Shown here in pieces: positions 10,996-61,073 of a DNA stretch of 64,000 nucleotides. Source of the DNA: Dictyostelium discoideum. Taxonomy: Eukaryota. Each line of letters opens with the position of its first letter. The first letter of the stretch is position 1. Made by a program: the position numbers and the translations under genes. The stretch spans positions 416,001 to 480,000 of the forward strand of contig CM000154.2 in NCBI GenBank assembly GCA_000004695.1, given 5' to 3'. The notes beneath the pieces were generated by a model. It was not told where the DNA came from. It made no database searches and was given only the letters and a program-made list of their open reading frames with translations.

Positions 10996-11091
10996 AACTA
11001 TAGCACCAACACCACCATCAACAACAGCACTGAGGATCTCCACAACAATGACAATACTCACAACAATGAGAGTACCTACAATGAAGATGCC

Positions 11092-11180
<89 letters not shown>

Positions 11181-16077: not shown

Positions 16078-16159
16078 TGTAAGCTAAGGGATTCGAACCC
16101 TTGTATCAATGATATTGCAGCCTTAATGCAACCCCTTAGACCAGCTCGGGCAAGCTTAC
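16078..16159 (-). tRNA. tRNA-Leu (anticodon AAG), class II with long variable arm
   Basis: Reverse complement GTAAGCTTGCCCGAGCTGGTCTAAGGGGTTGCATTAAGGCTGCAATATCATTGATACAAGGGTTCGAATCCCTTAGCTTACA. It has a 7-bp acceptor stem, a D arm, an anticodon stem TTGCA/TGCAA with loop TTAAGGC, a 13-nt variable stem-loop and T-loop GGTTCGAATCC. Confidence 0.85.
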
Positions 16160-51593: not shown

Positions 51594-52956
51594 TTAAACA
51601 TTTGAATCTACATCTAATTCAAAATCTTTATTATTATTTTGTTGACTTTGTTTCTTTTCAATTTCTTTTTTCTCTTCAATTTCTTTTTTCTCTTCAATTT
51701 CTTTTTTTTTTTCTTTTTTTTCTTTTTCTTTTTCTTCAGTATTATTTTCAATTTCACTATTATCATTAATTTTTAATAAATCTAAATTATGACCACGATG
51801 ATTATTTTTACCAACAACACAATTATAGCAAGCTTTTTCTTTACAATCTTCACAAAATAATAATAATTCTTGAGATGGATGATGATAACAAAATTTATTA
51901 TCTTTATCAATATTATCATTATAAATATTTTTTGAATCTTTTTTTGGAGGTGATATTCTAATAACAAGTTTCATTAAATAATAAAATCCAATTTGAATAA
52001 TTCCAGAAACACAACCACTAAAATTTGAAATTGATATAAAATTATCTTTTAAAAAAACACCATATAAACCAAATGCAACACCTGCTAAAATTGATGTTAT
52101 TGATAATGGTAATGATAATGATCCTGTTGTTCTTTGTTTAAACATTGGATACTATTTTTTTTTTTTTTTTTTTATTATTATATAATAATATATATTAATA
52201 AATCAAATAATATATATTAATAAATTAAATAATAAAATAATAAAAAATAATTTGAATAAAAAAATAATAATAATAATATAATTTAAATTAATAATTACAA
52301 AATTTAAAACTGGTGAAAAAAAGAATGCAACTAATAAAATTGAAGTTGCCCAACCAAGAATTTTTTGATGCATATCTTTTGGTGCTTGAAAAACCACAAT
52401 TGCAACAAATGAAACTAAAACTATTAGTTCAATCATTAATGAAACCATAACTTTTCTTTTTACTGCTAAATCTTTACAAGCACTAATAAAAATTAAAATA
52501 AAAGCTAAATCGAATAACATTCCAAATGTATTCACTGGTACAATACCTTCAATATCACATATCATTGAATATACAACCCACATCATTGCTTGACTTTTAA
52601 TTGATTTAAAAATTCCAGTAAGTATTATATTATTATTTTATTTAAATTTTAAAAAAATAAATAAATAAATAAAAAATAAAATAATAATAAAACTTACCCA
52701 ATCATAAAAACAAATGGATAAATATTAAATTGTCCAACATCTCTTGTTTTCTCAATTTTATAAAAATATGGACTTTTATTTTAATTAAATTTTTATATTA
52801 AAATGAAAAAAAAAAAAAGGTGTTAATTATTTATTTTTTGAATACGAAACTCTAAACTTCAAAAAATACCTACACATTTGATAATACTATACACGCTATA
52901 AAAACATTTCCTAAAATTTGTGTGGCTAATATTTCTGGTGAATTTGGACCTGCCAT
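51594..52956 (-). CDS. SWEET (MtN3/saliva) sugar transporter with a C-terminal B-box-type zinc finger and a charged coiled-coil tail. Exons 52874..52956, 52698..52772, 52299..52593, 51594..52151
   Basis: MAGPNSPEILATQILGNVFIACIVLSNV|VPYFYKIEKTRDVGQFNIYPFVFMIG|GQAMMWVVYSMICDIEGIVPVNTFG...|YPMFKQRTTGSLSLPLSITSILAGVAFGLYGVFLKDNFISISNFSGCVSGIIQIGFYYLMK. Compare plant/human SWEET PTFYRI.KKKS.EGFQS.PY and LSPL...KSTQCLSYPLTIATLLTSASWCLYG...MVSNFPGIV. The same last exon then encodes CYHHPSQELLLFCEDCKEKACYNCVVGKNNHRGH (B-box: C-x2-H-x8-C-x2-C-x4-C-x2-C-x6-H-x2-H; compare TRIM5 [32 protein letters not shown]), followed by (EEKKEI)n. Confidence 0.7.
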
Positions 52957-54939: not shown

Positions 54940-57288
54940 ATGGATTTATTATTTTTTAAAGTTTATCAAAACCAATATTTAAGGGTAAAAATATTTGGTG
55001 AAATAAAGAAAGAAAATGTTTTATTAAACTATCAAACTTATAATTATTATGAGATTACATTAGATGTTATTATCAATAATAAAAATCAAAACTTATTACA
55101 AGAGAAAGTAAAGGATCATATTAAACATCTCGATGATAATAGTAGAGAACCATTGGAGAAATATTTTTTTCATGTCGATATTAAAAAATTAATACAATGG
55201 AAGGATTTAGATTTTGAAATCTTTAAATTAATCTTATCAATGAAATCAGTTCATTCACATTTATCCAATCAAAATTTAAAAGATTTAATGGATTATTATC
55301 AATTAATAGTTATTAAAAATGGTAAAAACATGGAAATGTTGAATTTATTTTTAAATGATTTTATTATTCCAACATTAGATAAAGAAACATTTTCACAAAA
55401 CAAAAGAAGAAAATTGGAAAATAATCAACAACAACAACATCAATCTTATCTACAAAGTGAACATCCATTTTTGGGTGATTATTCAAATTTTTGGTCTCGA
55501 GTGTTGGAATCAAGTGAATATGGATATGCTGAGAATTTCACAAAAATGTCAATGGATATGTTTACATATTTATTTGTAAATGAAGGGAATAGAACTGCAG
55601 GAGATCGTCACGATTCAAGAGAATTTTATTTAAAGATAGCCTCTCATTCCTTAGACAATTACATTGGTGTTGAAATGTCAGATGAAGCTTTATATATGGC
55701 AACGGCATTCTTTTGTTTTGCACTGTATACACCACACGATCTCTCTACTTTAATAAATAAATCAATTGAATTAAACAATTTAAAAATGGTTAAATATTTA
55801 ATTTCAATGTTCTCAGTTAAAATAAGTTCTGGTCAAATCCATAGATACCCTGAACAACTTTTATTTATATTTGGTTATTATATTCCAATTGGAATAATCA
55901 AACAGTTTACCATTGATATCAATAAATTCAACTCTAGTGATATTTTATTTCCACTTTATCAAGTTTTAATTGAATCGGTTTTTGTTGATGAAAAATATTT
56001 CCAGAATTATAATTCCACAATCCGTGTCAGAGGTCCAAGATATTTTCAATATGCTTTGGATTCGATAGAAAGAAATAACGCTCCCCTATCACAAATTAAT
56101 TCAAACATTATTTGCTCATATGAATGTATTGAAAATACCGACTCCATATTATTGTCAAACGAATTAATGCAGAGGGATTATTATAAATCAAGAGTACTAA
56201 ATGAAAATCCAAATATCTTCTGTAGGTATTTAGAAAAGTTTAGTTTCGACCCTCGAAGATTATTTATAATCATTAGTCTTGGTTATGAAACAATGGTATC
56301 TACTGTGTTCAATAAAACCCTTGTCATGTCACCATCTGCTGATGTTCAACTTTCTCGAGAATATCGTATCTTTTTCTCGGAAGTATTTAGAGAATCCATG
56401 TCAATTGACAACGATGACAATTGGAAGCAATACCTCTTTGAGTTATCTTTGCCAGCTACCAATAATATATTCTCCGCAAAAAACCTCTCCTCTTCAATAT
56501 TATGTCGAATAATGGGTCCAATAACCAATCCACCAAAAGATAGAACTAAAAGAGCTTTGTTTTTATTCCATCTATCAAGGATTAAAAATTTCAATGAAAC
56601 AAGAAATTTAGGACTTGAGGTTTCCCTTTCATCAGACAATACATTCTCTAAAAACTCCATCGGTTTTTTAGCAGATGATCGAGAATTTAAAGATGATTTT
56701 TGTTCTTGCCTCTATTTAGTTTCCCAACACTTTTTTAATTATCATTTAAATTCTGAAAAGGAAATCCATAAAGCTCAGAGAATCCCAGAAAGAGATAGAT
56801 CCAAATCAATTGCAGAAACTGAAAGAGCAGACCCTTCACCGCCTAATATGATTCGTGTTAAAAAGCTACTTGGTTTCCTTACACATTTATTCGAATATCG
56901 ACCTTCACTAGACGAAACAGTCCATTCATCCAATGATGGTGATGGTGATGGTGATGGTGATGGTGATGGTGATGGTGATGGTGATGGTGATGGTGATGGT
57001 GATGGTGATGGTGATGGTGATGGTGATGGTGATGGTGATGGTGATGGTGATGGTGATGGTGATGGTGATGGTGATGGTGATGGTAATGTTGATGGTGATG
57101 TTGATGGTGATGATGGTGATGGTGATTGTTATGATGATGATTATGATGATGGTGATGGTGATGGTGATGGCTATGATGATTATGATGATGAAGATTCTAC
57201 CGATCTTTTGTTTGTTGGTGACGACCAAAATGCAAATATTCTAAATGAAACCTCAAATCAAGAATTGGCCAAATATCCAATGGGTTAA
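54940..57288 (+). CDS. lineage-specific hypothetical protein (782 aa) with a C-terminal (Gly-Asp)n repeat of about 50 units, single exon
   Basis: MDLLFFKVYQNQYLRVKIFGEI... shares its N-terminal motif with the 20285 gene. 56935..57230 is (GATGGT)n encoding DGDGDG... Confidence 0.7.
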   Translation: MDLLFFKVYQNQYLRVKIFGEIKKENVLLNYQTYNYYEITLDVIINNKNQNLLQEKVKDHIKHLDDNSREPLEKYFFHVDIKKLIQWKDLDFEIFKLILSMKSVHSHLSNQNLKDLMDYYQLIVIKNGKNMEMLNLFLNDFIIPTLDKETFSQNKRRKLENNQQQQHQSYLQSEHPFLGDYSNFWSRVLESSEYGYAENFTKMSMDMFTYLFVNEGNRTAGDRHDSREFYLKIASHSLDNYIGVEMSDEALYMATAFFCFALYTPHDLSTLINKSIELNNLKMVKYLISMFSVKISSGQIHRYPEQLLFIFGYYIPIGIIKQFTIDINKFNSSDILFPLYQVLIESVFVDEKYFQNYNSTIRVRGPRYFQYALDSIERNNAPLSQINSNIICSYECIENTDSILLSNELMQRDYYKSRVLNENPNIFCRYLEKFSFDPRRLFIIISLGYETMVSTVFNKTLVMSPSADVQLSREYRIFFSEVFRESMSIDNDDNWKQYLFELSLPATNNIFSAKNLSSSILCRIMGPITNPPKDRTKRALFLFHLSRIKNFNETRNLGLEVSLSSDNTFSKNSIGFLADDREFKDDFCSCLYLVSQHFFNYHLNSEKEIHKAQRIPERDRSKSIAETERADPSPPNMIRVKKLLGFLTHLFEYRPSLDETVHSSNDGDGDGDGDGDGDGDGDGDGDGDGDGDGDGDGDGDGDGDGDGDGDGDGDGNVDGDVDGDDGDGDCYDDDYDDGDGDGDGYDDYDDEDSTDLLFVGDDQNANILNETSNQELAKYPMG

Positions 57289-57576: not shown

Positions 57577-60500
57577 TTATCTTATTAGTTTACCAATATA
57601 AGACATTTTGAAAACTTTAAAATCAAAGTTTGAATTCATTTTAACGATACCAGTATTTTCATCAGTAAGAATGAAAAGATTACCACTTTGACCACATAAT
57701 TTACCTTTAACAATGACGACACGATCTTTTTTAGCTGGTGGAACCAAATTGAGTTGAGATTGTGAAACATTATCAATTACTTCTTTGGTGTCTAACATTT
57801 CAACTCTAACGGTTGAATCAGAGAGATTATCTAAAACTACGGCATGTTTACCAGAATCCTTAAAGACTACTTCAATCTTTGTACCAGACCAATATTGTGG
57901 TTCAACTTCTTCGTCATGATCTTCACTTGAGTTTGGAGTTGCGGGTGTTTGTGGATTATGTGGTGTGTATGGTGATGAAGGAATTTCATGTGGTGTATAA
58001 TTTGACATATAGGATGGTGTTGGATTTGGATCATTACCATAACCCATTGAAGGAGTGGAACGATCATATGGTGTATAGTTTGGATCACTTCTATTGGAAC
58101 CATCCAATGGGGTATTTGGTGTGTAAGGTGAGTACAAACTATAATTTGTACCTGGTGTAGTACCACTGCTATAATCGTTTCCATTATGGCTACCACTATC
58201 TCTACCACCACCACTACTACTATTATTATTACTACTACTACCGCTACCACTACCACTACTACTACTTGATGAAAAGTAATCCGATGATTCACGCATACTC
58301 CAAGGATCTGAATGACTTGAACGAGCAGGTGTATTCATACGCATTGGAGTTTGAGAAGGATCTTCACGCATTGGTGTTCTACTGGCATTGTAAAGTTGAT
58401 CCCAATCATTGGTTTGTTGTTGTTGCATTTGTTGACGTTCATTTGGTAAGGCGATATCGGTTTTTAAAACATTAATTTTTTTTGAATTGGTTTGAAGTTC
58501 AACTTGAACCATGGTATCTGTACATTCTTTAACAATACCAACATATCCTTTCCAAGATCCTTTCTTAATGGTAACCACTTTATGAAGTGGTGAATCTTCT
58601 CTACCACGACCACCTCTACCTCTACCTGAATTATTATAACCACCTCTACCTCCACCTCTACCACCTTGTGAAGAGTGCTGTTGTTGTTGCTGCTGCTGCT
58701 GTTGTTGTTGTTGTTGTTGTATATTAGATTGTTTATTTTTATTACCACCCAAAAGTGAACAATATTGAGTTCTTACTACAAATACACCACCATTCTCAAA
58801 TATATCTTTACTTTTTATGAATAAAAAGTTTCTAGATATGTGAAGAATTGTACCCTGTTTACCTTTGTAAGCTCCATCCACCACTTCAATTAAATCACCA
58901 GAGGTGATTGTGTTATGATGTGCATCCAATGTTGTGAATGATTTATTTCTTCTCTTATTTCCAACCTCTTGTAATTTAACTGTGCTAACATTTGAACTCT
59001 CATCCAAAACCTTGAATGAATCTCTTTCCACTTTTATAATAACACCCACTTTATGTGGTCCAATTTGAACTAAATCATGTAATTCATAATTACCCAACTC
59101 TAAACGACCAGTTGCTACTTCTGTACACTCTTGTAAATCTTGAGGTTTAACTTTAATCTCTGACATTGTCAAATCTGATAATAAAACGACCTGTAAATCA
59201 TCTACTCTTAACACCATACCTGTTTCACCTTCATATCTACCTCCAATTGCTTTAACATGATCACCAACTTTAAAATATTTTTGTAGTTCATATGGTTTGA
59301 ATGCAAATAAATCCTAAAAAAAAAAATATTAAAAAAAAAAATATTAAAAAAAAAAAATTAAGAGTTAATATAAAATCCATATAAAATTTTAAATAAATAA
59401 TAAATCATTTTTACCTTAATTTGTTCATCAATTGGTAAAATTAAAACTCTATCTTCTTCAACAGACTCTACAATTGCCATTAAATTTTTAAGATCACCTT
59501 GAATAACTTTTACAGTATCACCTTTTGCAAAATGAGTTGATTTTGTTTGAAGACGTGGTAAAATTGGAACAGAGGAAATTTCTGCTGAAATATTTTCAAT
59601 TGGTTGACCTTCTTCATCCATTTGAACTTCACCTCTATCTTGAAACTTTTGTAACTCCTCTAATGATGGTACAACACCATCGATATTCACTGATGCTACT
59701 CTAAAAACTTTATGAAGGAAACCATCTTTATATTTGTCACCATTTAGAATATAGAATAAACCACTTAGGGTAGTTGATTGATTGAGTGGTATTTTCATTT
59801 TCTCCACCTCATCGGGATTGAAAAATCTAGCTTGAGGACGAGTTCTTTTTCTCTTTGGTGTTGCAACAGCTTTATCTATTCCATTACTACCGCCAGTTCC
59901 ACTACTACCTCCTCCACCACCACCTCCACCTCCACTATTATTAATATTATTTTTATTATTATTATTAATATTATTATTATTAATATTATTATTATTTGGA
60001 TTATTATTATTATTTGGATTATTATTATTTGGATTATTTTTATTATTGTTATTATTATTATTTTTATTATTATTATTTGGATTATTATTATTATTATTTT
60101 TATTATTATTATTATTCTTATTATTATCATTTGGATTATTATTATTTGGATTATTATTATTTGGATTATTTGGATTATTATTATTTGGACTATTATTATT
60201 TGGATTATTATTATTATTATTTTTATTTTTATTATTATTATTCGCCTTATTTTCTTTTTCTTGTAATGATTGTGCTATAGATGGTAAATCTAAACGTGGA
60301 ATCAATTTAACTGTGACACGTGATTTTGATGGATCATAAGAGATGATTTGACCAATATCGGCCTTATATTTTCCTAATCTAATACGAACCCAACCACCCT
60401 TTTGAAGGTCGACATTCTTTTTGTTGGCAGAAATTACTTCTATGATATCTTTGAGTGGTGTGATGACTGGTGTGAATGAAACCAATGATGTCATACCTTT

Positions 60501-61073
60501 AATGGCCTGTCTAACGTGAACCTCTCTTTCTGCCTCTACATAAACGTAACCCGATAGATGATGTGGTGCCATAACCGATTTAATGAGTACATGATCGTTT
60601 GGATTATTGCTGTTTCTATTGTTTAACATCTTTTGCATCATTGATGCAACGAATAGTTTCTCTTCACCAACACGGCATTTCAAACGCCAATAACTTTGTT
60701 TTGGTAAATCCTCATCATAATCGCCTTCATCATCATCATATCCATAATCTTCATTGTCTGCATACTTTTGTACCTTTTGAAGTATATTACTTAATCCATT
60801 ATCTCTTTCCCTTAATGAACTATAGGCTTCTCTATCTTTTTTCATTTGTTCACTACTAAGTTGTTCGAAACCATCTTCGGCTTCACCTTCATCCTCTTCA
60901 TAATCATCCTCTGCATCATCTGCTTCTGCTTCTTCTTCAAAAAAATCATTCTTTGATTTCTTGGAACTTCTCCTTGATGACTCTTCATCTTCTTCACTAT
61001 CATCATATTCTTCTTCTTCATCATCAAAATTTTCTTCTTCTTCATCATAATTTTCATCATCTGAATGTGCCAT
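57577..61073 (-). CDS. spt5: transcription elongation factor SPT5 (DSIF large subunit). Exons 59415..61073 and 57577..59313
   Basis: Acidic N-terminus; NGN domain YWRLKCRVGEEKLFVASMMQKM...; KOW motifs KGDTVKVIQGDLKNLMAIVESVE, FKVGDHVKAIGGRYEGETGMVLRV, ITSGDLIEVVDGAYKGKQGTILHI, TIKKGSWKGYVGIVKE. The C-terminal region is full of S/T/P/Y repeats (YSPYTPNTP). Intron GTAAAA...TTTTTTTTAG, phase 0. Confidence 0.85.

Follow-up and report, generated by a model that had tools for sequence, protein, structure and literature searches.

A SWEET-type sugar transporter with a predicted B-box zinc finger in its C-terminal tail in Dictyostelium discoideum

Work on sugar transporters of the SWEET family has centred on plants and animals, and has dealt with them as bare seven-transmembrane (7-TM) uniporters; what is known of their regulation mostly concerns transcription and phosphorylation of the C-terminal tail. 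A gene in a 64,000-nucleotide stretch of Dictyostelium discoideum DNA (contig CM000154.2, positions 416,001 to 480,000 of the forward strand; hereafter the window) raises the question of whether such a transporter can carry, in the same polypeptide, a zinc finger of the kind found in TRIM proteins, and what that domain might do there. Inspection of the letters alone had proposed that this gene, which we call SWEET-A, joins a SWEET to a B-box and a coiled coil. We find the union of a SWEET with a B-box tail to be very probably genuine, while the proposed coiled coil, and with it the comparison to a TRIM protein, fares differently.

The SWEET-A gene and its two domains

The sequence-only reading had described a four-exon gene on the minus strand, and its coordinates and peptide strings proved exact. 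SWEET-A occupies 52956..51594, from an ATG at 52956-52954 to a TAA at 51596-51594; its spliced coding sequence of 1011 nt is in frame and specifies 336 amino acids (aa), and its three introns (101, 104 and 147 bp) all begin with GT and end with AG. GC content is 0.03-0.15 in the introns versus 0.23-0.31 in the exons, within a very AT-rich window (0.15-0.32), and this exon-intron layout is typical of Dictyostelium. The splice junctions are also those of independent NCBI gene models for orthologues (P0001, P0003 and P0008). A single uninterrupted terminal exon holds transmembrane helices (TM) 5-7, a linker, the Cys/His cluster, a repeat rich in Glu and Lys (E/K) and the C-terminus. The earlier description of this exon errs in one detail: the helix-1 motif PYFYKI, which it had placed there, actually lies in exon 2 (52772-52698). 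TM5-7 of the second MtN3 repeat, which begins in exon 3, do share the terminal exon with the B-box (Table 1).

The membrane portion is a complete 7-TM SWEET core, as had been proposed. The Pfam model MtN3_slv (PF03083) matches it in two stretches with 80.6 bits, against a gathering cutoff of 23.7, and a hydropathy scan yields seven hydrophobic segments. Residues 11-209 align to OsSWEET2b (5ctg, E=4e-16), and SWEET-A also aligns to AtSWEET13 (5xpd, E=1e-13), in both cases across all TM helices; the pocket Asn pair, one residue per repeat (N74 and N194), matches Asn residues of both structures. SWEET-A is a member of the SWEET family, sharing with these proteins seven TM helices, two MtN3 triple-helix repeats and the pocket Asn pair. 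It differs from them in a tail of about 120 aa that contains a predicted zinc finger, whereas the tails of plant SWEETs are disordered segments regulated by phosphorylation. Because Lys and Arg number 9 in loops 1/3/5 versus 3 in loops 0/2/4/6, a positive-inside bias, the tail is predicted to be cytosolic, as in known SWEETs.

The Cys/His cluster in this tail was read as an eight-ligand B-box with TRIM-type spacing, and profile and sequence comparisons bear this out. The string CYHHPSQELLLFCEDCKEKACYNCVVGKNNHRGH is present as first quoted, and the Pfam model zf-B_box (PF00643) matches residues 235-275 with 30.6 bits (E=3.8e-7) when the full protein is searched and 33.0 bits when the tail is searched alone, so that both profile matches expected of the fusion exceed their gathering cutoffs (24.1 bits for zf-B_box). 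All eight ligands are present (C239, H242, C251, C254, C259, C262, H269 and H272), spaced C-x2-H-x8-C-x2-C-x4-C-x2-C-x6-H-x2-H, which falls within the type-2 pattern C-x2-H-x7-9-C-x2-[CDHE]-x4-C-x2-C-x3-6-H-x2-4-H. The best matches of the tail in the PDB are the second B-box (B-box2) of KAP1/TRIM28 (2yvr, E=0.007), followed by several TRIM5 B-box2 constructs, 5eiu, 5f7t and 5iea among them, and the conserved Tyr of A-C-Y-N-C is aligned with the Trp of TRIM5 C-W-L-C. Judged by spacing, profile match and this aromatic position, which it shares with the type-2 B-boxes of TRIM28/KAP1 (2YVR) and TRIM5alpha (5W9A, 5IEA), the element is predicted with confidence to be a bona fide type-2 B-box. No second genuine Cys/His pattern of the B-box kind occurs when the 64-kb window is translated in six frames. 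Apart from the SWEET-A cluster, the Cys/His expression matches only a poly-Cys simple repeat at 11060-11179 (minus), which is (TGT/TGC)n read in one frame and no zinc finger.

Conservation, selection and age of the fusion

A search for orthologues that covered 5.8 billion proteins recovered fusions with both Pfam domains from D. citrinum (two strains), D. dimigraforme, D. firmibasis and D. cf. discoideum, the D. firmibasis protein being UniRef A0AAN7TZR4, named 'B box-type domain-containing protein'. In the assembly of a wild D. discoideum strain, ACTFIR (locus L007), the fusion is found at the same place and is called as a 347-aa product. At the five other loci compared as DNA, SWEET-A adjoins the Dicty_CTDC and Abhydrolase_3 genes in synteny with the window; as far as the flanks reached, PCNA follows beyond these genes (L001 and L007) and Spt5 lies on the opposite side (L004). 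All five loci compared share the acceptor AG and an open terminal exon, an open reading frame (ORF) through the terminal exon is likewise present in L007, and the eight zinc ligands are invariant in seven genomes (six loci as DNA plus the second D. citrinum strain, P0007).

Pooled Nei-Gojobori estimates from five aligned terminal exons give the ratio of nonsynonymous to synonymous differences (pN/pS) for each segment (Table 1). Since this ratio is 0.15 for the B-box versus 0.14 for TM5-7, the B-box appears to be translated and constrained as strongly as the transporter helices. The C-terminal motif, a new feature, is also conserved, with the form DFELD[VI][DE]SN[VIF] in all orthologues, although the E/K stretch preceding it is neutral; the end of the B-box-less paralogue described below is different (…TRGE). 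The low ratios show purifying selection acting on the B-box and the C-terminal motif.

These data bear directly on the possibility that the Cys/His cluster is a fortuitous or decaying read-through extension, untranslated or unused. Low-complexity sequence does flank the tail, a canonical AATAAA inside the linker directly precedes the B-box on its 5' side, and the window protein has no exact match in a collection of 15 billion proteins. Nevertheless, all seven genomes keep an uninterrupted ORF and the full set of eight ligands, the constraint on the B-box equals that on the TM helices even though synonymous sites in it have diverged (pS 0.25), its Pfam score lies above the gathering cutoff and the GC content of its segment (0.265) is exon-like. 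We thus consider an artefact of this kind extremely unlikely. The earlier reading had noted that a tail missing from orthologues would point to a recent read-through; instead, the fusion is conserved in genomes of the discoideum complex, under purifying selection. Besides the AATAAA in the linker, a second lies at 51627-51632, and the presumed real site, at 51557-51562, is about 35 nt past the stop codon.

How old the fusion might be can be approached through its relatives. The species that carry SWEET-A also carry a B-box-less paralogue, SWEET-B, of 253-286 aa. A G-alpha gene adjoins SWEET-B in D. cf. discoideum and likewise adjoins the D. purpureum SWEET P0006; because of this shared neighbour, P0006 is taken as the positional orthologue of SWEET-B. 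In a neighbour-joining tree of the SWEET core, SWEET-A and SWEET-B are each monophyletic (100%) and are sisters (70% bootstrap) within a clade that also includes D. purpureum (100%). Compared by eye, the first ~20 residues of the SWEET-A tail (RISPPK...) resemble the tail of SWEET-B (RISPLK...). The simplest history suggested by these comparisons would be that the gene was duplicated after the split from D. purpureum, that one copy moved elsewhere and that a B-box was captured.

The wider distribution is consistent with such a history. The SWEETs of P. violaceum, T. lacteum, A. subglobosum and C. fasciculata, as well as a second D. purpureum SWEET, have no B-box. When 1.84 billion representatives of annotated proteins were searched exhaustively with phmmer, 1102 significant SWEETs were found, and among the best 150 of these no zf-B_box or other soluble domain was detected; all 150 matched MtN3_slv, with only MtN3_slv-type matches, which agrees with the earlier statement that SWEETs are normally bare. 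Among the sequences searched, the fusion thus appears to be young and confined to a few closely related Dictyostelium species. The Abhydrolase_3 gene that borders SWEET-A has a homologue in D. purpureum (47% identical) that is not syntenic, and this locus is therefore silent on whether a B-box gene already existed at the insertion site.

Full-text literature searches found no published description of this fusion of SWEET/MtN3 with a B-box. The nearest precedent is a table that lists MtN3_slv among the domains co-occurring with FYVE (PMC2837644). The fusion is, however, already present in automated annotations, as precomputed Pfam domains and in the name of UniRef A0AAN7TZR4.

The charged helix and the comparison with TRIM proteins

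The sequence-only reading took the (EEKKEI)n repeat that follows the B-box for a coiled coil. The repeat is real, as (KEIEEK)x3 encoded by an 18-bp tandem repeat of 3.4 copies with 95% matches (Tandem Repeats Finder) that is joined by (AAGAAA)n, but its interpretation as a coiled coil does not survive. Of the residues in this segment (290-318), 81% are charged and 9% hydrophobic, and even in its best heptad register only 11% of the a and d positions are hydrophobic (at most 20% in orthologues). Its length varies from 27 to about 50 aa across genomes, with indels between species, and its pN/pS of 1.00 indicates neutral evolution. Because D. discoideum ACTFIR has a long (EK)n run at this position (L007 8490-9080), the SWEET-A coding exon would harbor a length polymorphism caused by repeat slippage. 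ORFs on the plus strand over the tail (51602-51776) were rejected as reverse-complement artefacts of the same repeat, their products being F/L-rich and of low complexity.

We ran AlphaFold2 on the terminal-exon product alone (mean pLDDT 58.7) and on the tail with a four-sequence alignment (mean pLDDT 50.6). In the model of the terminal-exon product, the E/K stretch forms a single isolated helix (pLDDT 84-88). In its sequence, 12 of 28 i,i+4 pairs are of opposite charge. The stretch looks like a charged helix of low complexity that is prone to slippage and belongs to the ER/K single-helix type, and may act as a charged helical spacer. It resembles ER/K single alpha-helix spacers in its charge and in its predicted isolated helix, and differs from them in being short, repeat-encoded, length-polymorphic and neutrally evolving.

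The original proposal, a B-box plus coiled coil as in a tripartite-motif protein minus the RING, would imply a dimer of the antiparallel RING-B-box-coiled-coil (RBCC) type and would tie the transporter to regulation of the ubiquitin-ligase kind. Such a module could be argued from the best matches of the tail, which are the B-box2 domains of TRIM28 and TRIM5, from the TRIM5 alignment, which extends into the coiled coil, and from the long helix that AlphaFold2 places right after the B-box. That helix, however, is a charged repeat with hydrophobic occupancy of the a and d positions of at most 11-20%; it spans 27 to about 50 aa, where TRIM coiled coils span 100 aa or more; and it is coded by 18-bp and 6-bp tandem repeats, is length-polymorphic and has a pN/pS of 1.0. 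Pfam detects no RING or other E3 domain in SWEET-A, the region N-terminal to the B-box being the transporter. Since both the RING and the coiled coil were looked for and neither was found, SWEET-A is not a TRIM/RBCC protein, and we regard a TRIM-like module as unlikely; a ubiquitin-ligase link to SWEET-A is pure speculation.

Compared with TRIM B-box proteins, SWEET-A thus lacks a RING ahead of the B-box, a true coiled coil behind it and a substrate-binding domain at the C-terminus, and its B-box is attached to a polytopic transporter. A partial likeness exists to the membrane-anchored TRIM13 and TRIM59, membrane proteins whose B-box likewise faces the cytosol, but these are single-pass, RING-containing E3 ligases rather than transporters.

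Possible roles of the tail and the genomic neighborhood

B-box2 domains are zinc-stabilised protein-protein contacts, and the B-box2 of TRIM5alpha drives higher-order self-assembly. SWEETs in turn function as oligomers, as seen in the OsSWEET2b trimer and the oligomerisation of AtSWEET1. Against this background, SWEET-A can be pictured as a recently duplicated copy of a dictyostelid 7-TM SWEET uniporter whose cytosolic C-terminal tail gained a type-2 B-box. Its membrane core would still move sugar down its gradient like other SWEETs, while the B-box would bind two Zn2+ ions and provide a cytosolic protein-protein contact. This contact could be self-association of transporter tails, in the manner of B-box2 assembly in TRIM5alpha, or docking of a partner, for example another Dictyostelium B-box protein, and it would set the assembly state, membrane location or turnover of the SWEET-A paralogue. 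The E/K helix may serve as a spacer that holds the C-terminal DFELDxxSN-hydrophobic motif away from the membrane. The end DFELDVDSNV can be read as a class-I PDZ ligand (S-x-hydrophobic-COOH) and also as a di-acidic export motif, and because of this DFELD[VI][DE]SN[VIF]-COOH is a candidate sorting or PDZ-type signal. The likeliest role of the tail, which we propose with less than even confidence, would be that of a cytosolic module for interaction or self-association, by which SWEET-A is tuned in how it is assembled, sorted or turned over.

Several observations weigh against this proposal, or against parts of it. AlphaFold2 assigned the B-box a pLDDT of only about 40-54, with beta-beta-alpha elements visible in an unreliable model; as no confident B-box fold was obtained, support for the fold comes from sequence. 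A donor of the B-box was not found, in a search with the 73-aa tail that came back empty and also missed orthologues sharing an identical 22-mer. Among annotated proteins, D. purpureum has no B-box fusion. The linker AATAAA, which directly precedes the B-box, makes a tail-less mRNA isoform of SWEET-A conceivable. Finally, the sequence evidence does not tell self-association and partner docking apart.

Dictyostelium does offer a precedent for B-boxes used in protein interaction. AreA (DDB_G0279871) is a Dictyostelium protein with a B-box and FNIP repeats and a binding partner of Atg101; the authors who described it view its B-box as a domain for protein interaction (PMC4554924). It belongs to the same organism group as SWEET-A and has its B-box outside an RBCC context, apparently for protein interaction (PMC4554924), but, unlike SWEET-A, it is a soluble protein, with FNIP and DUF4559 domains. 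The AreA-like B-box family of Dictyostelium is a plausible donor pool for the B-box of SWEET-A.

The same protein figures in a different explanation, in which the duplicated core has become a sugar sensor (a 'transceptor') that is no longer mainly a transporter and whose B-box tail relays its conformation to cytosolic partners. That SWEET-A is a young paralogue with the ancestral copy kept, that its new domain is of a signalling type and under selection, and that AreA acts in the control of starvation and autophagy (PMC4554924) would all suit a sensor. On the other hand, the constraint on the membrane core is what a working transporter would be expected to show, the pocket Asn pair is kept and the sequence carries no sign of a loss of transport, making a sensor improbable in our view. 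A bolder variant would have SWEET-A act as a sugar-sensing transporter whose tail couples the supply of sugar to a network of B-box proteins in the cytosol (e.g. the B-box/FNIP protein AreA), and hence to starvation, autophagy or developmental decisions, or else would have the tail drive a zinc-dependent clustering of higher order that matches the SWEET oligomer. This is a long shot, though if true, either the coupling or the clustering would mean that SWEETs can be regulated in a new way.

Returning to the tail as an interaction module, a selected zinc finger of this kind on a SWEET, in an organism with easy model genetics, would be a tractable test case for control by the tail. SWEET-A could show how cytosolic tails govern the assembly, sorting or turnover of SWEETs, and how a transporter captures a soluble interaction domain within a few speciation events. 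Its interest is moderate, and arises mainly because the genetics of D. discoideum and the natural B-box-less paralogue, a built-in control, ease testing; its scope is limited to the handful of closely related Dictyostelium species to which the fusion is restricted.

Table 1. Features of SWEET-A and of neighboring loci in the window
Feature	Window position	Strand	pN/pS	Remarks
Exon 1	52874..52956	minus		M1 to first two bases of V28 codon; most of TM1; donor GTAGGT; residues identical to gene model P0008
Exon 2	52698..52772	minus		PYFYKI motif and start of TM2
Exon 3	52299..52593	minus		TM2-TM5, with linker helix TM4 and pocket residue N74
Exon 4 (terminal)	51594..52151	minus		Open from Y152 to stop
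Second MtN3 repeat	52361..51969, across intron 3	minus		Residues 131-212; best Pfam stretch
Terminal exon, membrane part	51954..52151	minus	0.14	End of TM5, TM6, TM7; N194
Linker SPPKKDSKNIYNDNIDKDNKF	51891..51953	minus	0.70	Residues 218-238; weakly constrained; contains AATAAA
AATAAA in linker	51894-51899	minus		Canonical
Predicted type-2 B-box zinc finger	51789..51890 (Pfam envelope 51780-51902)	minus	0.15	Pfam, PDB matches, invariant ligands
Post-B-box segment			0.39	
E/K-rich low-complexity helix	51651..51737	minus	1.00	Residues 290-318; 18-bp tandem repeat (51646-51707) and (AAGAAA)n
C-terminal motif DFELDVDSNV-COOH	51597..51626	minus	0.24	Conserved in orthologues
tRNA-Leu (anticodon AAG)	16078-16159	minus		Only tRNA in window
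BB_PF-domain gene	45813-46739	plus		
PCNA gene	47300-48157	minus		Two exons
Abhydrolase_3 / Say1_Mug180 gene	48998-50011	plus		Single exon
Dicty_CTDC Cys-rich gene	about 50698-51117	minus		
782-aa ORF	54940-57288	plus		~50 (DG) repeats near C-terminus
Spt5	57577-61073	minus		

The genes around SWEET-A are listed in Table 1. The PCNA, BB_PF, Dicty_CTDC and Spt5 genes stand in the same order in related Dictyostelium genomes as far as the loci reach. D. firmibasis alone has an extra gene between SWEET-A and Dicty_CTDC (L002 4492-5151), encoding 219 aa without a Pfam match. Counterparts of the 782-aa ORF in other species are 609-787 aa long, without a Pfam match on record. After the D. purpureum homologue, the next matches of the Abhydrolase_3 product, at 36-42% identity, are unnamed metagenome proteins, the named ones being bacterial (mostly Firmicutes) alpha/beta hydrolases; the gene is a possible candidate for horizontal transfer.

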